Notes under the pieces: model-generated
Databases searched by the model: none
What the model was told of the DNA's origin: nothing
The model's input: the letters and a program-made list of their open reading frames with translations, nothing else
Shown here: positions 2,807-63,061 of the stretch, one piece after another
Layout of the letters: each line of letters opens with the position of its first letter
Position numbering within the stretch: the stretch's first letter is position 1
Translations under genes and position numbers: made by a program
Origin: a virus
Taxonomy: Duplodnaviria > Heunggongvirae > Uroviricota > Caudoviricetes
Strand: one strand, 5' to 3'
IMG/VR virus record: IMGVR_UViG_3300012269_000002
Coordinates: 18,407-82,406 of that record
Length of the DNA stretch: 64,000 nt

Positions 2807-3868
2807 ATGAGTGATAAAAAACCAGATGTTTTTCAAACAAAAAACACAGATAATATGGAATTTCCAAGTCAAATTTCTAGTGCAGAGGAACTTGCGGCTA
2901 ATAAAATGAAAAGAAGAACCGAGGAACAAATTAAACTTAGGTCTGAAAATTTAGCTAAAAGTGAGGAAATAGCTAGGGAAACCGAAAAAACAAGACTAAT
3001 ACAAATGGAAGAAAAAAATGCTCACCAATCAAATCAAAATTCTAGTAATCAACAAATGATAGAGCCAACGGTTAATTACCCACAAGTTACTAAAGCACCA
3101 GAACTTAGTGATATTGAAATAATGAGCCAACCCCAAATGAATCAAGCATTTGATGTAATCCCATTACCGTCCGAGGGTAAATTATACCCATCTAAAAAGA
3201 AAAGTATCAAGGTTGCGTATTTAACGACCGCTGATGAAAATATTCTTACGTCACCTAACTTAGTTGATAGTGGGCAATTTTTGGAAATACTATTAAATAG
3301 AAAGATTTTAGAACCAGAACTAAGATATAGTGATTTACACACTGGTGATAGAAATGCTATTATGGTTTGGCTTAGGGCCACTGGTTATGGTACTGATTAC
3401 CAAATACAAATGTTGGATAAAAATAATGTACCATTTGAAACATCCTTTGATTTAAGTACTCTTAAAACAATAAAATTAGGTGCTGAACCAGATTTGGAAG
3501 GTTTATTTTATTTTAAAATGCCATTAAGTGGTGATGATATAAAATTTAAACTATTAAGCGTTGGTGATGTTGATGCAATAGGTGAATTATTAGAATTGGA
3601 TAAGGTTAATGGTGTTACTATTAATACTGAACCTACCCACATTTTAAACTTTCATATAATTGAGGTAAACGGTGATAGAAGTAGAGATTTTATTAAGGAA
3701 TATTCAAATAATATTAGAACATTAGATGCTCAGAAACTTAGGAAATTTATTAGTAGTATCGAAAGCGGTATAGATTTAAATGTCGATATCAAGACTCCTG
3801 GGGGTGGGTCTATAACTACATTTCTTCCAATTAACCCAAGCTTTTTTTGGCCTAACTCGGAATTATAA
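2807..3868 (+). CDS. Tail/baseplate assembly chaperone (T4 gp26-like)
   Basis: FDVIPLPSEGKLYP..IKVAYLTTADENIL..., ending in FLPINPSFFWP; position between tube gene and tape measure. Confidence 0.7.
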   Translation: MSDKKPDVFQTKNTDNMEFPSQISSAEELAANKMKRRTEEQIKLRSENLAKSEEIARETEKTRLIQMEEKNAHQSNQNSSNQQMIEPTVNYPQVTKAPELSDIEIMSQPQMNQAFDVIPLPSEGKLYPSKKKSIKVAYLTTADENILTSPNLVDSGQFLEILLNRKILEPELRYSDLHTGDRNAIMVWLRATGYGTDYQIQMLDKNNVPFETSFDLSTLKTIKLGAEPDLEGLFYFKMPLSGDDIKFKLLSVGDVDAIGELLELDKVNGVTINTEPTHILNFHIIEVNGDRSRDFIKEYSNNIRTLDAQKLRKFISSIESGIDLNVDIKTPGGGSITTFLPINPSFFWPNSEL

Positions 3869-4124
3869 AACGAGTTTATTAGAAGAGATTTATGCTTGTA
3901 CCAAACACATAGGGTTTTCATACCAAGATACGCTTAGTATGCCTACTTACGAAAGGAGGTCCTATTTATCATTATTGATAAATGAAAATACTAGAAAATC
4001 TGAAAGGATGGAACAAGAAATGGAAAATACTACCAATAAGAACGCAAAGGGTAGTAGGACCAGTAGGGTTAGTGGTGAAACACTTAAAGCAAGATTAAAA
4101 AACGGAGAAATACCTAACAATTAA
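3843..4124 (+). CDS. gp51/GT-like chaperone extension, probably reached by ribosomal frameshift (ORF track starts it at ATG 3939)
   Basis: The frame is open from 3816 with no ATG before 3939. It reads ...NYKTSLLEEIYACTKHIGFSYQDTLSMPTYERRSYLSLL, and a T7 run (3842-3848) lies at the end of the upstream gene. Confidence 0.6.
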   Translation, partial: FFGLTRNYKTSLLEEIYACTKHIGFSYQDTLSMPTYERRSYLSLLINENTRKSERMEQEMENTTNKNAKGSRTSRVSGETLKARLKNGEIPNN

Positions 4125-4143
4125 ATAAGTTAGGTATTTTTTT
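4108..4143 (+). terminator. Intrinsic terminator
   Basis: AAATACCTAAC / GTTAGGTATTT stem followed by a T run. Confidence 0.65.
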
Positions 4144-4180
4144 CGTTTATTAGATATTTATAGTAAATACCATAATTTAG

Positions 4181-5530
4181 ATGAAAAAACTAATTATTAA
4201 CGAGTCTCAACTAAGGCTTATAAAGAATTTATTACTTGAGAATAAAACTCAGGATTTAATTAAAAAAGTTAACATCGGTGATATTATTTTAATTTACAGG
4301 GAAAATGTTGAAAAACATTTAATCTTTGAAGTTATAAATAATTTACCCGATGGTGTTTTTATGAGACCAGCTGATACAAATTCTAAGGATAGAGATAAAT
4401 TGATTAGGTTCAATATCATGGATTTGGATGGTGATACATTGAATTTAAAATGGATTGATAGCCCAGAAGGTGAAAAGGTTGGTAAACCTAGTTGGAAGAA
4501 CGTAACCGTAAAAAATATAACTGGTTATAGTTTACTTGATTCGGATAAAAATCCTAAGGGTTTTGTTAAGCTTAGTGATGAGGAAGAGGAAGAGGTTAAT
4601 ACCGATAATTCAGTAGAGGATGATGATAATATTGAGGATAATCAAAGTGAAAGCGAATATTTAAAAACACTAATATCTAGTTTGGACGAAATTGAGGTCG
4701 GTAGTAAACACATTTTGACCTTAAGTGATAATAGTAAAATACATTTTGAGGTTATTGATAAAGTACCTAATAAAATTGGTATTAAAATATTAAAAAATGT
4801 TGGTAAAGAAGCTAAACGATATGATAAATTAATTGATAATATCCTAGAACTTGAACCATCATCAAAAACAGTTAAATTAGTTAATGGTAAAAAAATATTT
4901 AACATATCATTTTTAAGTTACCCAGATGATAGGGATATTAATGAAGTTGATGAGGATGATGTAGATGTTGGAGAACCAGTAGTAATCAGTAACATAATTA
5001 ATTTTGAAAAATCTTATATAGATGCGAGTACGGATGTTAGTTCTTATGCAACCATTACTGATAAAGAAGCCATGAGTATGATTTTAAAAAACCCTAAGAT
5101 TAGAGGTGCGTTTATGAAGCAACCAACATTATGGGATATGATTACGAATAGTGAACCAAAAGGTCTTATTAAGGCTAAATCTATTCTTGATAAAGTTTAT
5201 AATGGTGACAATGAATCTAATAAACAGGTTACCGATGTTTTAAAAATTCCCAATAAAATAAGTTTTAAACTTTTAGGTGATTCATTTAGTGAAGAAATTG
5301 ATGGAGTTACTTATAAATTAAATAATGAAGTTAAATATATTGCAAAAAATAGGGCCAAGAGAGATGGTGGAGTATTTTCAACTATTTTAACTAAAGGTGG
5401 TATGGAACTATTTATTTATAGAATTAAAAATAAAGATAACGAAGAATATTTAGCCAGAATAATTATAAATTCGGATAGTGGTAAGGACTTTAAAGAAAAT
5501 AGGGTTATAAAAATATTTAAACAACAATAA
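4181..5530 (+). CDS. Hypothetical (probable virion) protein
   Basis: 449-aa ORF preceded by TATTTATA. N-terminus MKKLIINESQLRLIKNLLLE, acidic linker, two similar beta-rich segments. Confidence 0.7.
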   Translation: MKKLIINESQLRLIKNLLLENKTQDLIKKVNIGDIILIYRENVEKHLIFEVINNLPDGVFMRPADTNSKDRDKLIRFNIMDLDGDTLNLKWIDSPEGEKVGKPSWKNVTVKNITGYSLLDSDKNPKGFVKLSDEEEEEVNTDNSVEDDDNIEDNQSESEYLKTLISSLDEIEVGSKHILTLSDNSKIHFEVIDKVPNKIGIKILKNVGKEAKRYDKLIDNILELEPSSKTVKLVNGKKIFNISFLSYPDDRDINEVDEDDVDVGEPVVISNIINFEKSYIDASTDVSSYATITDKEAMSMILKNPKIRGAFMKQPTLWDMITNSEPKGLIKAKSILDKVYNGDNESNKQVTDVLKIPNKISFKLLGDSFSEEIDGVTYKLNNEVKYIAKNRAKRDGGVFSTILTKGGMELFIYRIKNKDNEEYLARIIINSDSGKDFKENRVIKIFKQQ

Positions 5531-18381: not shown

Positions 18382-18775
18382 AACAATTTTATTAGCATCC
18401 TTTATGGGTACTAAAGATATAGATATTTTTTTTAAAAAGCTTAAAGATAAATATAACATTCAGAAAACGAAAGTATTCGTATTTGAACATGTAGACGACC
18501 CCACTAAATTAATCGTAACATTTAAATTAGTAATTAAAAATAATATAAGGTTCAATATTAAGAAAGACCTACCAAACTCAATATTAATTCACAAAAGAGG
18601 TACGGCAATCTATACAATCAACGCCCTTAATAAATTAATAGAAAATACCCACCCAGAAACATTGGGAAACATTAATTATAGTTCGGTTAAAATAGATTGG
18701 TCCGAATTTCAAAATAAATTACTTACCTTTTATAATGATGAATTAAAGATATGTGATATAAAACGTATTTTTTAA
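18374..18775 (+). CDS. Hypothetical protein
   Basis: 133-aa ORF overlapping the upstream stop codon. Confidence 0.7.
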   Translation: MNRTILLASFMGTKDIDIFFKKLKDKYNIQKTKVFVFEHVDDPTKLIVTFKLVIKNNIRFNIKKDLPNSILIHKRGTAIYTINALNKLIENTHPETLGNINYSSVKIDWSEFQNKLLTFYNDELKICDIKRIF

Positions 18776-53332: not shown

Positions 53333-55227
53333 TGAGTTATCAGGATAAAATATATAATCAAAATGTTAAGGGTATTAAAAATAGTACCGCCCCAGTTATA
53401 AAAACGAGTTCGGATATTTGTGTTTTCAGTAGCCCATTATTTACCATGGTGGGTGGTGATAAAATACAATGTTCCGATGTTACGTTTGATGTTAGTGGTA
53501 CTTCATTTGGTGATATATATTCCGCAACTACGGAGTGTTTTATTATAAATAATTTAGATATAGCTTGCTTTAACGATATTAATTGGAATACAAATATATA
53601 TGAGGATGATAACTTAGTTTATTCTTCCATATTCTACACTTCCAATTCAATATTTGGTGATGAACCTACATTAATCGACTTTACTTTAGGCGTTACCACT
53701 GCTTTCAATATTTTAGGGTATGATTATGAAGTAGATGGTAGTACATACAACGTTAATCAAATACGTGGTATCGGTAACCTCAAAATAGATATTGAGACAA
53801 ATTTAAACTATAGTGAATCGTGTCCGTTAACTGGTGCATCGTCTGGTAATACATTTACGGGTACGTGTGAAGATATTAATTCAAATATTGTAGATATTAA
53901 CTATAATAATTTAGTGCCGAGTGATAATAATGTATTTCCAATTACTGGGCAGACCAGTATAGCGTTGGAGTTTATATTTACTGGTAATACGGGTTCATTC
54001 GAGAACATGGATACGGATACTAAATTTAAGTTTGAGATATACGAATTTAATGAAGTTTTAGGAATCTTTAATGAAACTCCAAAATTTACATCACCACTTA
54101 AAGATTGGGCAACAATAAGTGGGACTAGTGCATTTACCGAAACAATCAGTGTCGATAATTTAAATATCGATGGCAACTATTTAGTAAAGGGTTATTACGT
54201 TTTTAATAAATGTACCGAATTTGCTAATTTATTGGGTCAAAAATACACAACGGAGATTAATAAATTGGGTGATGAATATAGGTTATATAACGCTAATAAA
54301 GATTTTTATTTCGTAGTGTTCAATAATGCAGATGTTCCATTAGTAGAAAGTGGGGATAATAACGAGGAAAACGTATTTGGCGTATTAAAGGTTATAAGTC
54401 AAATATTACCAGGTGGAACCGACCAGTTTTCATACCCAGTACAATCTGGTGATTTAATTGTTAATCTAAACGGACTTACTCTAGGTAAAGGACTAGACTA
54501 TTCAATAGAACCGATTAGTGAAGGTGGTCGAACAGTTTTAAAATTAAGTGGTGACACATATGACGGTGATGTACTCACCTATATCTATACAAGCTCGGAT
54601 GAATCTAAAAATAATATTAAACAAGATGTTATTGATGTAGTTACCACTATTACAAATGGGTCAACCAACAATCAGGGTGATAATAAAGTATTCTTCAACA
54701 CAACAAAAAATAAATACGAATTATACATGGAAATGACTCCAGTATCTAATAATGACGTTGTAGTTACTATAAATGGTATGGCATTGGCCAATAATATTGA
54801 TTATTATCTTTCATCATCAAATCCTAAAAGAATTATTCTTGAAGGGGATATAATAATTGGGGATATTATTAATATTTGGTATAATACCAATATTAAAGCA
54901 CAAGGTAATATATTTTCGGATACCGTTATAATCGATTGGTCAATAATAAATCCACCAAAGTTAAACGATAGGGGTAAATTTACACTTGAATTAAGTAGTG
55001 ATTTGGATTTTACAAATATAATAAACTCAATAGAGGTACCTTATATTCAAAATATCATAACATATTCAACGATACTAGGTTTAGTCGGTAGTGCTGGCGA
55101 TAAAGTTTATTACAGGGTCAAGAATGAAAAAAAATTCATAGATATTTGCGGTGGTCCCATTATTAGTACTTCATTTAGTGAAATAGTGGATATAACAATA
55201 CAAACAAATTCAATAAATTCATACTAA
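53332..55227 (+). CDS. Probable structural protein with repeated beta-sandwich units
   Basis: Repeats IVNLNGLTL...DY and VVTINGMAL...DY. Confidence 0.6.
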   Translation: MSYQDKIYNQNVKGIKNSTAPVIKTSSDICVFSSPLFTMVGGDKIQCSDVTFDVSGTSFGDIYSATTECFIINNLDIACFNDINWNTNIYEDDNLVYSSIFYTSNSIFGDEPTLIDFTLGVTTAFNILGYDYEVDGSTYNVNQIRGIGNLKIDIETNLNYSESCPLTGASSGNTFTGTCEDINSNIVDINYNNLVPSDNNVFPITGQTSIALEFIFTGNTGSFENMDTDTKFKFEIYEFNEVLGIFNETPKFTSPLKDWATISGTSAFTETISVDNLNIDGNYLVKGYYVFNKCTEFANLLGQKYTTEINKLGDEYRLYNANKDFYFVVFNNADVPLVESGDNNEENVFGVLKVISQILPGGTDQFSYPVQSGDLIVNLNGLTLGKGLDYSIEPISEGGRTVLKLSGDTYDGDVLTYIYTSSDESKNNIKQDVIDVVTTITNGSTNNQGDNKVFFNTTKNKYELYMEMTPVSNNDVVVTINGMALANNIDYYLSSSNPKRIILEGDIIIGDIINIWYNTNIKAQGNIFSDTVIIDWSIINPPKLNDRGKFTLELSSDLDFTNIINSIEVPYIQNIITYSTILGLVGSAGDKVYYRVKNEKKFIDICGGPIISTSFSEIVDITIQTNSINSY

Positions 55228-55280: not shown

Positions 55281-57446
55281 ATGAGTTATATAATAAATAA
55301 TACAAGTGCTTTTGTTAATATAAAATTAACTGAAATTGGTAGACAAAAAATAGCACAAGGTCAATTGACCTTTAATTCTTGGGCTATAGGTGATTCTGAA
55401 ATAAATTATGACAGAGAGGTAAACCATGATAATTTCCCAATGGACGTAAGTTTATCGGGTTCAAGTAAGGTTTTACGCCCGTTTGATAATCAACCTAATC
55501 TTAAATACTTCATAACTTCACAAAATACTAGTGAAGGTGGATTAAATGTTTTAAATACTTCACAAATCAATACAATAAAAGCTATTGTTAACAATAAAGC
55601 CGAAGATAGAGGTTTCTTTGAAAAAGTGGGGTCTGATTATGTAACGTATAGTGGTGACACTTACATAAAGGGGGGCGGTATTATACCTGGACCCAATATG
55701 GACGGTTCAAATATCTTGGTTATTGGCACTGGTTACACGGTTGGTGATGTAATATTGGTTAAGGTATCCAATGACACCGTTGGTACACTACCTTTAAATC
55801 AAAATACAACACCAGTACCAAACCTATGGTATAAAATACAATCATTAACGACCACAAACGATGTTAATGATACGGCAATTTTAGATAGGAATCTACCAAA
55901 CACTAATTCTAGTATTTCCGACTCACAATTTATAGTTTATACTGGTGGTGAAGTTTATGGTAATTTCGGTTTTGAGGAAACCACACCATACTGGAACAGT
56001 AATACATTATCATTTGCTGGGTCAAGTGAAATATCATCTGGTGATGTTGCAGTTTGGAATATGAATAATGTGTGGTGCGAAAACTTAGTAGGTATGACAG
56101 GTACTAGTGTTAATAATTCGGTATCAACACCTAATGAGAATTTTAGTAAATTTGGTTCTAATGGTTTTTTAGGTCAAAAGTATCCATATTTAGGATATTC
56201 ATGTAATGAAAATAGTGGGGCTAATAGTGGTGTATTAGATGAATGTAATTCACTTGGACAGTCGGTAAAAGATAGGACTAAAAAATCAATATCAATATTA
56301 CATTACACAAATAACACTATATCCAACTTTTATGGTGAGTATCTATTCATTGACGGTGATAAAAATAAAAATTTAATATTACGTCTTCCAGATATTATGT
56401 ATCATAGAAGAGATTTTACAAGTGAAAATGGTACATTAATGGGAATGGATTTTATAGCTAGTGGGGATACTAAATTTATAGATAATTCAGATATCAAATA
56501 TATTGAATTAGTTGAATATGGAACTTTGGTTAGTGGAACCCCTAGAGTTGTAGGTAAAGTATTCCCACAATTAAAGACCGTTATTTTCGATGATGATGAA
56601 ATTATTGCGGCAATGTCCTATAAATCAAATAGAAATTGGACATTACCATCATTAAGTGCCAACCTAATAACCTCAAATTTGGGGTCTGGTTCAGGTGTTT
56701 TAGCTGCTAAAAAAACAATGTATATTACATATAGTTTCGAGAACTCCACAACCAACGGTTTAGGTACGACACTACCATGTCAATCATACGCTAAAATATA
56801 CAACTCAACGTCTAGTAGTAAAGATGTTCAATTTAAATTGAACGATATCGATTTGCTACCTTACATGAGAAAAGAAGAAAAAGTTGGGTATGATGGTCTT
56901 GGTTTCTCAGCAAGGGAGTTCAAGGTATTATATCAAATAGTTGATGATGTAACGGATAGACCAAAATCAGATGCTTGGAAAGTTTACGATTACACCAATA
57001 CAAATATAACCGATGCGGTCGGTGAAACTATAGACCCAATTAAATTAGAAAATCAAAACCCAACGGTAAACGGATTCTTAATTGATAGTGTGGTTGATAC
57101 TTCAGCCACTATATTCAGCATTATGACATCTTTAAACATGCCAGCGAATACAACACCAGAAGTTTTACAATTTGGTGATGAACGATTTTTCTACGGTAAT
57201 TTGGAAACATATATTGGTGCAACGATTTATAAATCTATATTCAATATAGATATTTCTGCCGATGACTTTAAAACCACTGGTAACCCAAGTAGGTCCAATG
57301 CTGCGGTTAATCCACCAGATATTAGAGTTACCGAAGTAGGTATATATGATAATACTGGTGATTTAGTTATGATTGGTAAATTAAGTAAACCAGTAAAATT
57401 AACATCTGGAAATACTATCATGGTTGAGTTAAGTATCGACTTTTAA
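55281..57446 (+). CDS. Baseplate/fibre-attachment protein (gpH N-terminal-like)
   Basis: IKLTEIGRQKIAQG...WAIGDSEINY; C-terminal VTEVGIYDNTGDLVMIGKLSKPV. Confidence 0.65.
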   Translation: MSYIINNTSAFVNIKLTEIGRQKIAQGQLTFNSWAIGDSEINYDREVNHDNFPMDVSLSGSSKVLRPFDNQPNLKYFITSQNTSEGGLNVLNTSQINTIKAIVNNKAEDRGFFEKVGSDYVTYSGDTYIKGGGIIPGPNMDGSNILVIGTGYTVGDVILVKVSNDTVGTLPLNQNTTPVPNLWYKIQSLTTTNDVNDTAILDRNLPNTNSSISDSQFIVYTGGEVYGNFGFEETTPYWNSNTLSFAGSSEISSGDVAVWNMNNVWCENLVGMTGTSVNNSVSTPNENFSKFGSNGFLGQKYPYLGYSCNENSGANSGVLDECNSLGQSVKDRTKKSISILHYTNNTISNFYGEYLFIDGDKNKNLILRLPDIMYHRRDFTSENGTLMGMDFIASGDTKFIDNSDIKYIELVEYGTLVSGTPRVVGKVFPQLKTVIFDDDEIIAAMSYKSNRNWTLPSLSANLITSNLGSGSGVLAAKKTMYITYSFENSTTNGLGTTLPCQSYAKIYNSTSSSKDVQFKLNDIDLLPYMRKEEKVGYDGLGFSAREFKVLYQIVDDVTDRPKSDAWKVYDYTNTNITDAVGETIDPIKLENQNPTVNGFLIDSVVDTSATIFSIMTSLNMPANTTPEVLQFGDERFFYGNLETYIGATIYKSIFNIDISADDFKTTGNPSRSNAAVNPPDIRVTEVGIYDNTGDLVMIGKLSKPVKLTSGNTIMVELSIDF

Positions 57447-57498: not shown

Positions 57499-58701
57499 AT
57501 GGGATTTTTAAATAACACACCTTCGATAGAATTAAAAGCCAAACTTACCCCAAAAGGTAGAATAGGTTTAATAACAAATGATAATAATCTTATCACCTCA
57601 TTTAGTTTGGGGGATTCGGATAGTTATTATTCTGTTTTTTCTGGCCTAACTGGTGGACAAGTTCCACAGATATCTGGTAACTATTATGGTGCCGACACCA
57701 ATAATGGTGGAATCGATTACGTATTAAAAAGTGTACTAAAGTTTAATTCGACTACACTTAGAAAACCAATTGAAACGCAATCAATAAATGTTTCTTCATT
57801 CCCTCAATCACTTGGGTATAACGATTTATATTTTTCCGCTGGAACTTTTTCACAACAAATTGTGGATTTAAAAGACCTAAATAGTGATTCATTAGTTAAT
57901 TTATTCTATTCATTTAACTTACCGATAAGTGATTCTGATTTTATGAGATTTACTGGTACTACATTCCAAAATGGTGGATTTTCAAATACCGCATTAGGTG
58001 GACTAGCTACCGATAAGATATTGGTAATAGGTATCGATGGTAGTGAGTATAGTGAATTAATCGATGGTAAAAGTATTAAGTTATCGTTGGAGACCAGTAT
58101 TCAACCATATGAAGTTTATTCAACTTACGAAAGAAAAGGTATCTCATTAACCAACGAAGATTCAGCTGTAACCGATTCATCGACCAATGTTGCCAATTTT
58201 GGACCTAACAGGGTTTTATTATTCAGTGATGATGTAAAAAGACCTAACGGTAACCCATTATTAAGTTGGGCCACTGGATATGCACAAAATAAACCATTTA
58301 GTGTTAACGGTAAACAATTATTTAATTATAGGGGTAACGTCAACACGAGCACAACCCCAGATGAGGCAATAGGTATCGCATATTTGGATAAGGGCTTTAT
58401 TGTTATTACCCACCCAGACATTGTAGATAACTTCGTATTAACTGGGTCAACCTCTAGTGCAACTACAATTAGTTTCAATACTATTAGAAACAGAGTATCA
58501 CAATCAATTACCTGTATTGCCAATAGGGGTGAATTCGGTGTATCGACAAACCCTACCTGGGCTACTTCGGATGTACCTAGAATTACCGAGATAGGTCTTT
58601 ACGATTCCAACAATACTTTAATTGCCATTGGTAAATTAAATCGAACATATGATAAGCCTGTGGATGATTTTGTTGCTTTTAATATAACTATTGATTATTA
58701 A
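57499..58701 (+). CDS. Paralog of preceding baseplate/fibre-attachment protein
   Basis: AKLTPKGR...FSLGDSD; C-terminal ITEIGLYDSNNTLIAIGKL. Confidence 0.65.
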   Translation: MGFLNNTPSIELKAKLTPKGRIGLITNDNNLITSFSLGDSDSYYSVFSGLTGGQVPQISGNYYGADTNNGGIDYVLKSVLKFNSTTLRKPIETQSINVSSFPQSLGYNDLYFSAGTFSQQIVDLKDLNSDSLVNLFYSFNLPISDSDFMRFTGTTFQNGGFSNTALGGLATDKILVIGIDGSEYSELIDGKSIKLSLETSIQPYEVYSTYERKGISLTNEDSAVTDSSTNVANFGPNRVLLFSDDVKRPNGNPLLSWATGYAQNKPFSVNGKQLFNYRGNVNTSTTPDEAIGIAYLDKGFIVITHPDIVDNFVLTGSTSSATTISFNTIRNRVSQSITCIANRGEFGVSTNPTWATSDVPRITEIGLYDSNNTLIAIGKLNRTYDKPVDDFVAFNITIDY

Positions 58702-58755
58702 TCCTTTACTATTTATAAAAATTGTTTTATTATTATATTAAATTATAAATAAGCT

Positions 58756-59406
58756 ATGGAAGATAATAAAAATAACCTAATATTAGGCCTGGATGTTTCA
58801 ACAAAAACGATTGGAATTGCTTTGTTCGAGGATTTAGGTAAGAGTGGTAAATTAAAATTACTTCACCATGTTACACCTAACGTAAAACCAAAACCAGAGA
58901 GTAATATTCAAATGTTATTTGAAAAGGCTAGAATATTCGATGAAGAATTTTTAAATAAATATAGTAATGTAGGTATAACTAAAGTTATAATCGAAGAGCC
59001 TCTTTTACGTTCAAATAACGTAAACACCGTAGCAACCTTACTTAGATTCAATGGTATGATTGCCAGGGCAATATATGATACACTTGATATTGTTCCAGAA
59101 TTTATTTCATCTTACGATGCTAGAAAATTCGGTATACCCGAATTAATGGGCATTAGAAAATTTAATAAAAAGGGTGAACCATATAGTGAAAAAGAAATCT
59201 CCAAGAAAGAACCAGTATTATTTGGCGGTTATGATTGGGAAGTCGATAAAAAAATGGTCGTTTGGGAAAAAGTTGCGGATTTAGAACCACAAATCACTTG
59301 GTTACATACAAGAACAAAAACCTTAAAAAAGGAAAATTTTGACATGAGTGATGCTTATATCACAGTTATAGGCTATATGAATAAAATTGGTGTGTGGGTT
59401 AAATAA
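58756..59406 (+). CDS. RuvC-like Holliday junction resolvase
   Basis: ILGLDVST..IG, VIIEEP, C-terminal DMSDAY (RNase H-fold acidic residues). Confidence 0.8.
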   Translation: MEDNKNNLILGLDVSTKTIGIALFEDLGKSGKLKLLHHVTPNVKPKPESNIQMLFEKARIFDEEFLNKYSNVGITKVIIEEPLLRSNNVNTVATLLRFNGMIARAIYDTLDIVPEFISSYDARKFGIPELMGIRKFNKKGEPYSEKEISKKEPVLFGGYDWEVDKKMVVWEKVADLEPQITWLHTRTKTLKKENFDMSDAYITVIGYMNKIGVWVK

Positions 59407-59480
59407 TAACACACATATATAAATCTTTTCTCACCTAAATCGGTATTTTACCCACTTTCTATATATTTATAAATAAAGTT

Positions 59481-60266
59481 ATGGGGGATAAAATAGTTAG
59501 AAAGTTATCTAAAACACCATTATGTGGTGTGTATCAGATAGAAAACACAATTAATAATAAAAAATATATTGGCCAATCAATTGATATAGAGAGGCGATGG
59601 AATCAACATCGTTATGGTAAAGGTAGTATTATATTAAGAAATGCTATAAATAAACACGGTATTAATAATTTTGAGTTTACAATTCTAGAGTCTATACCAA
59701 TTGGTAATAGAGATAAAATGATTGATGAACTAACCTTAATTGAAGAAAAATGGTTATCTAAGGAGAAACCTTTTCTAAGAGAAAATGGTTATAATATAAA
59801 TAAAAGCGCAAAAGTGAATATACCAATTGAAAGACCTGAAGGTTATGGTGAAATGATTAGTAAAATAAAAATTGATAATAATCATTGTGGTAAAGCTACA
59901 GTTCAATACGATTTAGAAGGTAATTTAATTAAAGTGTGGAAATCCGCTGCACAAATAGAAAGAGTATTAGGGTTTAAGGCTGAAAATATTTCAGCATGTT
60001 GTTTAAGAAAAAACAAAAGTTCTAAAGGGTTTATCTGGAGGTTTAAATGGGATTTGGTATCCAAATATGATATTATAAATTTAAAAATTAAAAAAGGTGC
60101 ATCTAAAACAATAGAACAGAAAACGTTAGATGGTAAAGTTATTAGAGTTTTTGATTCACTAACCGCAGCTTCTAATTTCACCAACATACATTATACATAT
60201 ATTAGTAAAGTTTGTACTAAAAAACAAAAAACGGCTGGCGGTTTTAAATGGTCCTACCATGAGTGA
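59481..60266 (+). CDS. GIY-YIG homing endonuclease with NUMOD1-type repeats
   Basis: GVYQI.N..NNKKYIGQS..I.RRW.QH...F.FTILE...E..W...GYN; two QYDL.G..IK.W/F.S...A units. Confidence 0.9.
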   Translation: MGDKIVRKLSKTPLCGVYQIENTINNKKYIGQSIDIERRWNQHRYGKGSIILRNAINKHGINNFEFTILESIPIGNRDKMIDELTLIEEKWLSKEKPFLRENGYNINKSAKVNIPIERPEGYGEMISKIKIDNNHCGKATVQYDLEGNLIKVWKSAAQIERVLGFKAENISACCLRKNKSSKGFIWRFKWDLVSKYDIINLKIKKGASKTIEQKTLDGKVIRVFDSLTAASNFTNIHYTYISKVCTKKQKTAGGFKWSYHE

Positions 60267-60324
60267 TAGTTACTTATGTGTTATTGGTTATATACAAAAA
60301 AATGGTTATTGGCCTATAAACTAA
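60259..60324 (+). pseudogene. Relic 3' end of the ruvC-like gene
   Basis: MSDSYLCVIGYIQKNGYWPIN* vs resolvase C-terminus MSDAYITVIGYMNKIGVWVK* (11/20 identical); CATGAGTGAT shared exactly. Confidence 0.75.
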
Positions 60325-60331
60325 GTTCCTA

Positions 60332-60362
60332 TTGCAAATATGGATTAATTTTCATATATTTG
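60332..60362 (+). promoter_or_regulatory. Bacteroidota-type promoter in front of the primase relic
   Basis: TTG 60332-34, 20 nt, TATATTTG 60355-62. Confidence 0.7.
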
Positions 60363-60366
60363 CAAT

Positions 60367-60450
60367 ATGGACAATATTTTAATTAATTTATTTAGGGGAT
60401 TTTTAGGTGAATGCCACAGTCACAATGATGACAGTGGTCAATATTCATTT
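60367..60450 (+). pseudogene. Relic 5' end of the primase gene
   Basis: MDNILINLFRGFLGECHSHNDDSGQYSF vs primase MDNIILNIFRSFLGEPHEHNEESGQTSW (18/28 identical). Confidence 0.85.
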
Positions 60451-61293
60451 ATTAACCACATTCCAAATTGTTGATTTACTAATATTAAATAAATCAGCTA
60501 ATTTTCTGGTTGAATAATAACCAGTTTTATATAGATTTATAATTTCTTTTTTAATTGTATCAGTTAATTTAGTTTTTTCATTTGAAGAAAAATACACCCA
60601 CTTAAACCCAATACATATTTTAGTTCTACCATTACAAACTGAACTAATTCTAGATGGGTCGATATTATAATTATTAGCTGCATCAGTTAAACTATCCCAT
60701 AGTTTAATTGTATTACCATCAGTATCTAACTGGTAAACTTTTCTTTTATTTAACGCTGGTTTACCTTTTTTTATGTTGGATAATTTATTTTTAGTTTCAC
60801 TTGAATGACCAACCCCAGTTTTAGTTTTTATAAGTTTAATTATAGTTTCACTATAATGTTTTTCACCAGTATGTGAAATGGACATCATTTTTTTAGTTTC
60901 ATCAGAATGTTTATTACCTAAGTTATATTTATTACCCTTATGAATTTTAGATAATTTCATTTTTGTTTCGTCTGAATGCTTAAAACCTAACATGTTATTA
61001 GCAAAGCCACATATATTATATGTTTTATCTTTATCAAATGGTTTCATAACATCTAAATGATATTGTTCACGTATTAATAGGTCGGTAACATTTTCAATAA
61101 TTTCGATTATATTAAACTCAAAATTATTTTCACCATATTTGTTCCAAGATTTTTGCAAATAATCATTATCATGAATACCCTTTCTAAGTGTACGTTTATG
61201 GTCATACCATCTTTTAGTTATATTAATTGAACTACCAATATAAAATTTACCGTTTTTTATATTTATTATCCTATATATACCTATTTTATTCAT
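60445..61293 (-). CDS. GIY-YIG homing endonuclease (NUMOD3, NUMOD1, C-terminal HTH)
   Basis: GIYRIIN...KFYIGSS..I.KRW..H...LQ.SWNKYG..NF.F.I.E...EQ..LD...YN; HSDETK repeats; STRKLADLFNISKSTIWNVV. Confidence 0.9.
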   Translation of the reverse strand: MNKIGIYRIINIKNGKFYIGSSINITKRWYDHKRTLRKGIHDNDYLQKSWNKYGENNFEFNIIEIIENVTDLLIREQYHLDVMKPFDKDKTYNICGFANNMLGFKHSDETKMKLSKIHKGNKYNLGNKHSDETKKMMSISHTGEKHYSETIIKLIKTKTGVGHSSETKNKLSNIKKGKPALNKRKVYQLDTDGNTIKLWDSLTDAANNYNIDPSRISSVCNGRTKICIGFKWVYFSSNEKTKLTDTIKKEIINLYKTGYYSTRKLADLFNISKSTIWNVVNK

Positions 61294-61438
61294 TTTCTTT
61301 TATATGTGTTTCTAACAACTCCCCAATTAATTTAGATTTATTATTTGTGATTTTATTTAACTGGTCATTTAAGTCTTTATCCAAAGTTATACTAACTTTT
61401 ATTTTCTTATCACTTTCATTTAATTTTGGTCTTCCCAT
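61286..61438 (-). CDS. 50-aa ribbon-helix-helix-like DNA-binding protein (not in ORF track)
   Basis: MGRPKLNESDKKIKVSITLDKDLNDQLNKITNNKSKLIGELLETHIKENE*. Its end overlaps the endonuclease ATG, and TATTTAT lies upstream (61460-61454). Confidence 0.7.
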   Translation of the reverse strand: MGRPKLNESDKKIKVSITLDKDLNDQLNKITNNKSKLIGELLETHIKENE

Positions 61439-61526
61439 ATTATATCTTTATTAATAAATATCTATAAAAATAATAAAAATAGCTTTTTTATAGCATTTTT
61501 AAAAAAAAAGTTATATATTTGTAAAC

Positions 61527-62489
61527 ATGGATAATATCATACTTAACATATTTAGAAGTTTTTTAGGGGAGCCACATGAACACAATGAAGAAAGTGGTCA
61601 AACAAGTTGGGATTGTCCAGCTTGTGCTGAGGATAAGGGACTTCCTATGGGTCAAGGTGATGGTAGACATAAATTAGCGATTAATTATAAACGTGGTATA
61701 TTTAAGTGTTGGGTTTGTAACTACCAAAACAACATGTACGGTAAAATACCTAAATTAATCAAACGATACGGTAATAAAAAAATACTAAAGGATTATTTAT
61801 TACTTAAACCAGAGAATGATTATCAACCGAACCTAAATGATATACAAGCAACGGTTGTACATTTACCCGATGGCTTTAAAAAACTTAGTGAGTGCACTGG
61901 TAGTGAGTATAAATATTCACACGCATATTATTATCTAATAGATAGAGGATTTACTGATGAAATAATTAAAGAATTTAATATAGGTTTTACTACTTATGGT
62001 AAATTTAGGAACAGGGTCATAATCCCATCATACGATGAGGTAGGTGATTTAAATTATTTCGTTGGTAGGGCTTGGGACGATTTCAATAAACCAAAATATA
62101 ATAACCCAGATGCTGAAAAACAAGCGATTATCTTTAATGAGGATAAGATTAATTGGGATTCTACAATATATTTGGTAGAAGGAGCCTTTGACCATATAGT
62201 AATTCCAAACTCAATACCTATACTGGGTAAAAATTTAAGTGTTAGAGTTAAACAAATGATATTAACCAAGTCCAGAGCGGATATTGTAATATTATTAGAT
62301 GAGGATGCCTACGATGATGCTATTAGAATTTATAAAGAACTTAATGTTGGTGATTTATATAATAAGATTAAGTTATGTACTCCACCGTATAAAGAAGACC
62401 CAGCTTCTATTTTTAAAAATGAAGGTAGGTCTGGTATTATAAAATTATTAAAAACTTCTAAAAGGGTTCCAGAAATTGAGTTATATTAA
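61527..62489 (+). CDS. DNA primase (zinc finger + TOPRIM)
   Basis: CPAC...CWVC, YL..RG, R..IP, YLVEGAFD, LLDEDA; TATATTTG promoter at 61514-61521. Confidence 0.9.
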   Translation: MDNIILNIFRSFLGEPHEHNEESGQTSWDCPACAEDKGLPMGQGDGRHKLAINYKRGIFKCWVCNYQNNMYGKIPKLIKRYGNKKILKDYLLLKPENDYQPNLNDIQATVVHLPDGFKKLSECTGSEYKYSHAYYYLIDRGFTDEIIKEFNIGFTTYGKFRNRVIIPSYDEVGDLNYFVGRAWDDFNKPKYNNPDAEKQAIIFNEDKINWDSTIYLVEGAFDHIVIPNSIPILGKNLSVRVKQMILTKSRADIVILLDEDAYDDAIRIYKELNVGDLYNKIKLCTPPYKEDPASIFKNEGRSGIIKLLKTSKRVPEIELY

Positions 62490-63061
62490 AAATCGTCATC
62501 GTAACCAAAATCAAAATCATCATCAGGTAAGCCGATTAAATCTTCTTCACTATCACTACTTAAGAAAGGTGTTTTACTTATAATTTTAGCCCCTAAACCT
62601 CTATTTTTTAAAGTTATTTCTTTTTCATTCGGAAATTCCATTCTATTTCTTATTGTGGCATCTACATCTATTAAGTTCTTGGGTGATTTAACTATAAGTA
62701 GAACAGGTTCACCACCACCAACATGACTTTTCTGACTGTGACTAGATGATAAATCTTTATCACTTAAAACATAGTGTGAACCTATATGTTTTGTATCAAT
62801 ACTTTCTATACTACTAACAAATACTACTCTATATAAAGTAATAGTTTGAGGTAATTTATTAAGTATATATAAAATATTTTCCAATGCCCTTTTTGCTAAG
62901 TTTGGGTTACTAAATGAAGTCTTAAGACCCAATTTTATATATTCATTTCTTAAATCATTTGTGATAGCATCTTCATTTAGAGTATATTCATCCTTTGTAG
63001 CATCTGAAACGTGATGATATTCTAAATCTTCCCTTAACCTTTGTTTTATATAATTTTTCAT
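62486..63061 (-). CDS. Hypothetical protein, possible ADP-ribosyltransferase fold
   Basis: ITLYRV...GSHYVLS...FPNEKEITL; preceded by TATTTATA on the minus strand (63083-63076). Confidence 0.45.
   Translation of the reverse strand: MKNYIKQRLREDLEYHHVSDATKDEYTLNEDAITNDLRNEYIKLGLKTSFSNPNLAKRALENILYILNKLPQTITLYRVVFVSSIESIDTKHIGSHYVLSDKDLSSSHSQKSHVGGGEPVLLIVKSPKNLIDVDATIRNRMEFPNEKEITLKNRGLGAKIISKTPFLSSDSEEDLIGLPDDDFDFGYDDDF

Follow-up and report, generated by a model that had tools for sequence, protein, structure and literature searches.

How can an endonuclease gene settle within the coding sequence of an essential gene and leave that gene in working order? The question is raised by a 64,000-nt stretch of DNA from a tailed phage (Caudoviricetes; IMG/VR record IMGVR_UViG_3300012269_000002, positions 18,407 to 82,406), which is called the window below. 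Here an endonuclease gene sits between the working end of a gene and a stranded duplicate of the same end, both for ruvC, which encodes a Holliday junction resolvase, and for the adjacent primase gene. We conclude, with a probability of roughly 0.8, that the locus contains two free-standing GIY-YIG homing endonuclease cassettes, back to back inside a formerly plain ruvC–primase junction, and that each cassette brought a replacement gene end. An earlier note on this DNA, written from the sequence alone, had proposed such an insertion for the ruvC side; its coordinates for the end of the resolvase, the overlap with the endonuclease stop codon, and the orphan sequence behind it are all correct.

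A Stranded ruvC End behind an Endonuclease Gene

The ruvC gene (58756–59406, plus strand) is a complete open reading frame (ORF) of 216 codons, made up of its own body and a tail (59344–59406) that encodes the 20 residues MSDAYITVIGYMNKIGVWVK and closes with a double stop. A second ruvC tail lies at 60259–60324 on the same strand. This orphan comprises 21 codons and a stop, encodes MSDSYLCVIGYIQKNGYWPIN, and has no gene body attached. It matches the working tail at 11 of 20 residues and 44 of 66 nucleotides, as the earlier note had observed for the residues. Both tails open with the 10-mer CATGAGTGAT, which occurs only twice in the window: at 59343–59352, where it spans the last letter of the D196 codon and codons M197-S198-D199, and at 60258–60267, at the start of the orphan. 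After the 10-mer, the two tails diverge (20 of 51 compared nucleotides differ), and the working tail past this junction (59353–59406) is proposed to have been imported together with the endonuclease gene that follows it.

The match between the two tails stands out from the background of the window. When all six-frame 20-mers were compared with the working tail, the orphan was the sole one to exceed 7/20 identity, and in a nucleotide scan the next best segment after the orphan reached 35/66. We also built a profile hidden Markov model (HMM) from the tails of 33 endonuclease-free relatives and searched the six-frame translations of 87 loci and the window. Within the window, the profile finds two matches only, the working tail with 86 bits and the orphan with 24.3 bits (E 6e-5, profile positions 26–44). 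The relic match is thus significant against chance.

Between the two tails lies endonuclease 1 (59481–60266, plus strand), an intact, free-standing protein of 261 residues with GIY-YIG (PF01541, E 4.7e-12) and NUMOD1 (E 5.9e-10) domains and a match to PHROG 314. The motif residues Y18, Y29-I30-G31, R39, H43, and E88 are conserved in an alignment of eight homologues. Its stop codon, TGA at 60264–60266, falls within codons 2–3 of the orphan, so that the first letters of the orphan also encode the last two codons and the stop of the endonuclease. The spacer that separates the working ruvC tail from the endonuclease start (59407–59480) carries a promoter-like box, TATATTTA, at 59462–59469. The earlier note had counted a promoter as part of the mobile unit; the box is present, with one mismatch to the TAnnTTTG box preceding the primase gene, and it may be regarded as a putative promoter.

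Taken together, cassette 1 spans about 59353–60257 (915 nt including one copy of the 10-mer) and brings together a substitute ruvC tail (stop included), a short spacer with the promoter-like box, and the endonuclease gene. The cassette sits between D196 and M197, among the codons of the ruvC D-x-x-D motif. The frame is unbroken from the ruvC body into the tail, yielding a complete resolvase. Neither a group I intron nor an intein acts as carrier here: the double stop of ruvC precedes the endonuclease gene, which has its own start, and there is no in-frame fusion. An Rfam search of 58600–62600 at E values up to 1 likewise returned no intron RNA family, in keeping with the earlier claim that neither type of element is involved.

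The Interrupted Gene Encodes a RuvC-Type Resolvase

Sequence comparison gives only a faint identification of the 216-residue protein. A Pfam search found no family, the match to the RuvC-like PHROG 159 is weak, and a sequence profile gave a marginal, N-terminal match to solved structures, so a fold search was needed. The AlphaFold model has a mean pLDDT of 92, and Foldseek places RuvC at the top with a probability of 1.00 and a TM score of 0.77 normalized by target (6lw3). The top fold matches are the RuvC structures 6lw3, 7xhj, 4ep4, and 1hjr, together with RuvC of Lactococcus phage 67 (4ktw). Across an alignment of 29 resolvase homologues, D13, E80, E81, D196, and D199 are invariant. Judged by its predicted structure, the protein is a RuvC-type resolvase with an RNase H-like fold in which the four acidic catalytic residues are present. 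The D196-x-x-D199 motif is placed in the last helix, with the cassette junction between D196 and M197, and the working tail retains all of the conserved tail residues (D, Y, G, M, and W).

The phage and its host are uncultured. Comparison with known phages gave short endonuclease matches only at the DNA level and no RuvC match at the protein level. The nearest cultured relative of the primase is that of Flavobacterium phage vB_FspM_immuto, at 35% identity.

A Mirror-Image Cassette at the Primase

The sequence immediately behind the orphan ruvC tail reads like an abandoned gene junction. A 42-nt spacer (60325–60366, plus strand) holds a complete promoter motif, TTG-N20-TATATTTG, at 60332–60362, and is followed by an orphan primase 5′ end of 25 codons (60367–60441, plus strand). 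This orphan start encodes MDNILINLFRGFLGECHSHNDDSGQ and is recognized by a primase N-terminus HMM (36.4 bits, E 1e-8). It matches the working primase start at 17 of 25 residues (next best in the window, 8 of 25) and at 59 of 73 nucleotides; beyond it the homology ends, and the ORF runs into a stop at 60474. The DnaG-type primase gene itself is complete (61527–62489, plus strand, 320 aa; Pfam DNAG_N; PHROG 47, E 1.5e-40). The nonamer AGTGGTCAA closes both the orphan start (60433–60441) and the homologous part of the working gene (61593–61601).

Endonuclease 2 (60445–61293) lies on the minus strand, with its stop three bases past the end of the orphan primase start. Assigned by Pfam and PHROG, it is an intact protein of 282 residues in which a GIY-YIG domain (PF01541, E 3.4e-11) is followed by the C-terminal modules NUMOD3, NUMOD1, and HTH_7. 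Its start is overlapped by a small ORF of 50 codons on the same strand (61286–61438), which shows weak CcdA and repressor matches and may encode a small DNA-binding regulator; the ORF also accompanies endonuclease-2 homologues at loci L031, L014, L032, and L044 (relatives and other viral loci are cited by L number). A divergent intergenic region (61439–61526) with a TATATTTG box at 61514–61521 then leads into the working primase 5′ end (61527–61601, 25 codons).

We propose that cassette 2, about 60442–61601 (1160 nt), is the mirror image of cassette 1. It was inserted after primase codon 25 and would comprise the minus-strand endonuclease gene, the companion ORF, a new promoter region, and a substitute 5′ end for the primase, the last assigned as an import by analogy with the L037/L038 pair described below; the resident promoter and 25 codons were stranded. 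Because the orphan ruvC tail, the promoter-bearing spacer, and the orphan primase start follow one another in continuous order, the 184 nt at 60258–60441 appear to be the fossil of the uninterrupted ruvC–primase junction.

Two side observations concern this region. The fossil primase promoter, a full match to TTG-N20-TAnnTTTG, now faces the 3′ end of endonuclease 2 on the minus strand and could give rise to antisense RNA; the DNA of the window was found in no RNA run. Separately, the 50-aa ORF and an endonuclease-2-type gene form a two-gene module that is found at two sites, before the primase gene (window, L031, and L037) and right where ruvC begins (L014, L032, and L044). In L014, compared with the empty locus L015, the module substitutes about 28 nt at the ruvC start, and no duplicate is visible.

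Recurrence at the Same Codons in Other Lineages

The resolvase belongs to a family with 6508 proteins in aquatic metagenomes at E 1e-20 or better. On the plus strand of the window, a 400-aa gene (57499–58701) lies directly upstream of ruvC, and the order of this gene, ruvC, and primase is conserved in IMG/VR relatives. In most endonuclease-free relatives, L092 and L095 among them, the distance from ruvC stop to primase start is about 18–70 nt; values up to about 130 nt occur. The earlier expectation that ruvC would run straight into the primase region in such relatives was therefore borne out; its companion, that their tails would resemble the relic, was not borne out throughout, as discussed below for L092. 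The 42-nt fossil spacer fits the 18–70 nt spacers of these relatives and so agrees with the anatomy that the cassette model requires.

We surveyed 116 distinct ruvC–primase loci, 61 of which have a bare junction (gap below 200 nt). Homologues of endonuclease 1, endonuclease 2, or the HNH endonuclease of L044 occur in the gap in eight lineages, and in seven of these eight the matching gene end is present as an orphan. Among the loci without such an endonuclease, an orphan is found in 1 of about 107 (Fisher p = 1.4e-9). The exception, L010, has in its gap an 88-aa ORF resembling an endonuclease remnant.

The recurrence is specific in position as well as in content. Endonuclease-1 homologues (47–55% identity) occupy the same ruvC site in L021, L022, L026, L041, L091, and L108, and are paired with ruvC tail orphans in L022 and L026/L028 and, in reversed orientation, in L041–43 and L108. 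In L044 this ruvC site is occupied by an HNH gene instead, again with a ruvC tail orphan. Endonuclease-2 homologues (40–48%) in L031 and L037/L055 share the primase site of the window and are paired with primase start orphans. The breakpoint of the ruvC orphans, that of L010 included, falls at profile position 26 (28 in L041), except that the longer orphan of L044 extends beyond it on the upstream side; for primase orphans the end lies at profile positions 23–28. Independent lineages have thus received insertions at the same codons. Away from the ruvC site, the nearest IMG/VR relatives of endonuclease 1 have 35% identity or less, so its clade appears tied to this site. More distant relatives have other inserts in the ruvC–primase gap, mostly without a Pfam family and in one case with a weak LAGLIDADG match; none is accompanied by an orphan.

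In the window, L022, and L026, the first 10–11 nt are exactly common to both copies of the tail, and the oligonucleotide differs among the genomes. It could reflect microhomology that closed the repair or an imprint of the specificity of the enzyme. We considered a true target-site duplication as the source of the 9–11 nt identity at the junction and set it aside, as such identity is absent in L010, L041, and L044.

Direction of Replacement in Filled and Empty Pairs

Which of the two copies is the original can be read where a cassette-bearing genome has a close relative with an empty junction. In three such pairs from other lineages, nucleotide identity marks the stranded end as resident and the working end as imported. 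The flanks of L037 and the empty L038 are 98.7% identical, and the L037 orphan (promoter and primase codons 1–22) is 100% identical to the working start of L038. The working start of L037, by comparison, is only 52–80% identical to L038 as far as about codon 26 and 98–100% identical beyond it; the T-G-Q codons lost about eight resident letters to the replacement. L037 also differs from its sibling L038 by a second insertion of about 1.5 kb (L037:9497–11003), located downstream of the primase cassette at a distance of about 1.7 kb.

The second pair concerns the ruvC site. L044, with its HNH endonuclease gene in reverse orientation behind ruvC, is 93–97% identical to the empty L018. Its working ruvC equals that of L018 up to ..MSDAYAC and then continues into a foreign tail, and the right part of its orphan, the spacer, and the primase gene are 95–97% identical to L018. 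The third pair comes from an unrelated phage group (L314/L348), in which a GIY-YIG gene precedes a DnaE-like gene with a PHP domain and an orphan start lies upstream. The orphan DnaE-like start of L348 is 92% identical to the working start of the empty L351, against a background of 81–84%.

The same direction would apply to the ruvC cassette of the window by analogy with these pairs. A comparison with L091, whose resolvase is the closest found (89% of residues; body 83% at the nucleotide level), mildly favors the orphan as the window lineage's own ruvC tail. The orphan is closest to the functional tail of this nearest relative: the L091 tail is 77–82% identical to the orphan and 68–72% identical to the working tail at the nucleotide level, and it has S4, C7, N15, and Y17 of the orphan. 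L091 itself has an endonuclease-1 homologue directly behind ruvC, in reversed orientation. When the region L091:1624–2037 was compared with the window, a segment of 163 nt proved 89% identical to window positions 59856–60018, and the remainder of the gene is about 47% identical in residues. That this segment is far closer than the rest of the gene suggests module exchange between endonuclease genes.

Several observations weigh against our interpretation. Over the first 57 nt, the preference of L091 shrinks to 44/57 for the orphan versus 41/57 for the working tail, and L091 is not an empty allele, given its reversed endonuclease gene. The tail of the endonuclease-free L092 is nearer in residues to the working tail (13/20) than to the orphan (10/20). 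The working primase start is nearer to its closest relatives (16–18 of 25 residues) than the orphan is (12–15 of 25), so the direction assigned to cassette 2 rests on the homologous L037/L038 case, and the two copies of the primase start are 81% identical to each other, so that cassette 2 could be the product of a recent local duplication. In L044, the left portion of the orphan is foreign when set against an L018-type genome, and a piece of the donor's orphan can therefore travel with the cassette. L021 has an endonuclease-1 homologue and no orphan. Finally, no endonuclease-free sibling of the window phage was found in the collections, where all 13 of 13 contigs with an identical RuvC carry both endonucleases.

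Further searches for an empty allele were equally negative. The contigs of four lake metagenome runs contain no joint that skips either cassette, although rare variants could escape a search of contigs only. The exact orphan-tail pattern had no match in viral contigs, and degenerate patterns (the body joined to the orphan tail, and the orphan tail peptide) had none in metagenome contigs. Close endonuclease-free siblings of L026, L022, and L041 were not found either, and tail comparisons for these three gave no decisive preference.

A 99.1%-identical variant genome from another lake (L266/L267) also carries both cassettes. It differs from the window at 6 positions in 58700–61639 and at 47 in 61640–62324, and the divergent patch begins 39 nt past the predicted right edge of cassette 2, which is suggestive of exchange at the cassette border. 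Overall, the differences between the two genomes are concentrated in three dense substitution patches (54009–54260, 56433–56547, and 61640–62324), with few elsewhere; the patches resemble short recombination tracts, and only the third abuts an endonuclease cassette.

Alternative Origins of the Duplicated Ends

The same anatomy might have arisen locally. The endonucleases could have landed in the spacer; sister genomes could then have recombined by an illegitimate or unequal crossover that duplicated the gene ends, with nothing imported and the stranded copies left to drift. Such a history would suit the primase side, where the two starts are as close to each other (81%) as either is to any relative and where the working start is closer to relatives by residues. 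It would also suit the exact junction oligonucleotides common to both copies, of 9–10 nt in the window and 10–11 nt in L022 and L026. Stranded-copy drift predicts the opposite, however, of what the three filled and empty pairs display, in which it is the working copy that has strongly diverged, the stranded copy being essentially the same as the empty allele. Moreover, the two ruvC tails of the window are only 67% identical to each other, compared with 83% for the ruvC body of the nearest relative. We consider a purely local origin improbable.

Somewhat less probable again is the reverse direction, in which the working ends are resident and the orphan is a foreign passenger, a fragment of the donor's neighboring gene. 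It would account for the foreign left part of the L044 orphan, for the L092 tail, and for the fact that most relatives are as close to the window's working tail as to the orphan, or closer. Against this stand the resident orphans of L037/L038, L044/L018 (right part), and L348/L351, as well as the tail of the nearest relative, L091, which favors the orphan. The orphan tail, the promoter-bearing fossil spacer, and the orphan primase start also make up one continuous and correctly spaced junction. The idea that the orphan is a chance ORF unrelated to ruvC, for which its mere 21 codons in low-complexity, AT-rich DNA might speak, is refuted by its status as the unique residue and nucleotide outlier of the window, by the profile E value of 6e-5, by orphans at the same position in five other lineages, and by the fossil promoter and fossil primase start that come next.

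Import of a replacement end with each endonuclease gene thus remains the reading that we prefer, and the earlier proposal of a cassette consisting of a new ruvC tail and an endonuclease, with the old end left behind, is supported by recurrence, anatomy, and the three filled and empty pairs.

A Possible Route for Homing without Splicing

How might such a cassette move? By analogy with the double-strand-break repair homing of T-even phages (PMC2988022), each enzyme would cut the uninterrupted allele near the conserved junction codons, and repair would copy the cassette from a co-infecting genome. The left broken end would prime on the gene body of the donor, so that the imported end and the endonuclease gene are copied, and the orphan of the donor would provide homology immediately across the break. 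The cut site would be lost in both products, in the working copy by changed letters on one side of the junction and in the stranded copy by endonuclease sequence on the other side. Both copies would then escape cutting because each retains only half of the original site. Immunity of the recoded gene, as proposed in the earlier note, would likewise be expected. With the stranded end serving as a homology arm flush with the break, a free-standing gene could in this way home like an intron without splicing.

Comparison with Known Systems

The closest known system is that of the mobile-ORF hybrids of fungal mitochondria, in which an endonuclease ORF within a coding region brings a foreign, in-frame C-terminus. 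Such hybrids are described for atp6, atp9, cox2, and nad3 of Glomus (Beaudet et al. 2013, PMC3630166) and for atp6 of Allomyces macrogynus (Paquin et al. 1994, as cited in PMC3630166), and the fungal parallel to which the earlier note had pointed is therefore a real one. As in our case, the native C-terminus is kept downstream as a duplicate, and the native copy matches close relatives; in Glomus, the native C-terminus is 91–98% identical to close relatives versus 64–81% for the foreign one (PMC3630166). The differences are nonetheless substantial. Here a bacteriophage is the host, and the genes invaded serve replication and recombination. The endonuclease gene is separate, has a start and a promoter-like box of its own, and is not translated as a continuation of the host gene. 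In addition, the phage endonuclease genes occur in either orientation, 5′ ends with their promoters are replaced as well as 3′ ends, and two cassettes abut.

Among phages, free-standing GIY-YIG genes beside essential genes are familiar from the intronless homing of T-even phages, with SegF at gene 56 and SegG at gene 32 as examples. The Seg and Mob endonucleases cut the neighbor's allele in endonuclease-less phages, double-strand-break repair follows, and flanking resistant sequence is co-inherited (review, PMC2988022). Co-conversion replaces the flank in those systems, and descriptions of them mention no stranded gene end, whereas here the insertion lies within coding sequence and the old end is retained. 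L021, with an endonuclease gene and no orphan, resembles the T-even state.

Endonuclease genes inside a conserved, critical part of an essential gene, with no intron, are also seen where phage genes have been split, as by mobE in nrdA of Aeh1, mobA in the topoisomerase gene of T4, and seg in gene 43 (PMC2988022), or fractured with split inteins (Dassa et al. 2009, PMC2677866). In those cases two polypeptides are reassembled or spliced. In the present phage the missing end comes with the cassette, so the host protein remains one polypeptide chain. A further likeness is to the "HEG islands" of Barth, Dunham and Seed (2023, PMC10448857), nuclease genes at genetic-exchange boundaries, which flank essential replication genes and mark recombination boundaries; the L266/L267 patch 39 nt from cassette 2 may be compared. 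Duplicated gene ends are not described in PMC10448857. The earlier note was not aware of good descriptions from phages, and we found none of gene-end replacement in the literature searched, which mostly excluded subscription journals.

A selfish endonuclease in essential coding sequence must spare its host, and a spare gene end is a third solution besides splicing (introns and inteins) and protein splitting. Such cassettes leave datable insertion fossils and exact junctions at catalytic motifs, so the target sites of the two uncharacterized endonucleases become directly predictable, and the cassettes are predicted to provide ready pairs of cleavable and resistant sequences. For annotation, short orphan ORFs and "extra" promoters beside endonuclease genes become recognizable. 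Mosaic and rapidly changing termini of phage genes for replication and recombination may also originate in this way.

Gene-End Replacement beyond ruvC and Primase

We screened 80 diverse IMG/VR GIY-YIG loci by flank-versus-flank protein comparison. Besides the ruvC and primase examples already described, the screen returned two others: the DnaE-like gene of L314 and, in L281, a 167-aa gene of unknown function. Control comparisons of mismatched flanks produced 2 matches in 77. In these two unrelated viral contigs, a 21–22-codon orphan start lies upstream and the endonuclease gene overlaps the new start (L281: orphan 5′ end at 2357–2419, gene at 3100–3603; L314: orphan 5′ end at 2084–2152, DnaE-like PHP-domain polymerase gene from 3258 onward). 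Gene-end replacement is thus recurrent and affects at least four genes (ruvC, primase, DnaE-like, and the 167-aa gene).

The RuvC tails were also examined for variability among 120 homologues, using pairs with bodies at least 80% identical and control segments of equal length. Residues 200–216 (window positions 59353–59403) have a mean identity of 0.53, versus 0.80–0.86 for the controls. This fits frequent replacement of the tail, with relaxed constraint as the alternative explanation. Only tentatively, and with slightly more doubt than confidence, do we suggest that gene-end replacement is a general and hitherto unrecognized route by which free-standing homing endonucleases of phages, with no intron or intein, enter the most conserved codons of essential genes, the stranded end being kept as a flush homology arm. 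If so, repeated rounds would produce hypervariable ends of replication genes, which would fit the mosaic RuvC tails as well as the DnaE-like and unknown-gene cases.

Screen matches in L298, L311, L318, L322, L332, and L334 were dropped as low in complexity or too weak. L310, an unrelated viral contig, was rejected as a gene-end case, since its match is a noncoding repeat of 370 nt before two tandem endonuclease genes. The two copies (L310:2103–2467 and 3878–4217) are 70% identical, have stops in all frames, and each precede one of the GIY-YIG genes; the repeat might encode a structured RNA or serve in regulation.

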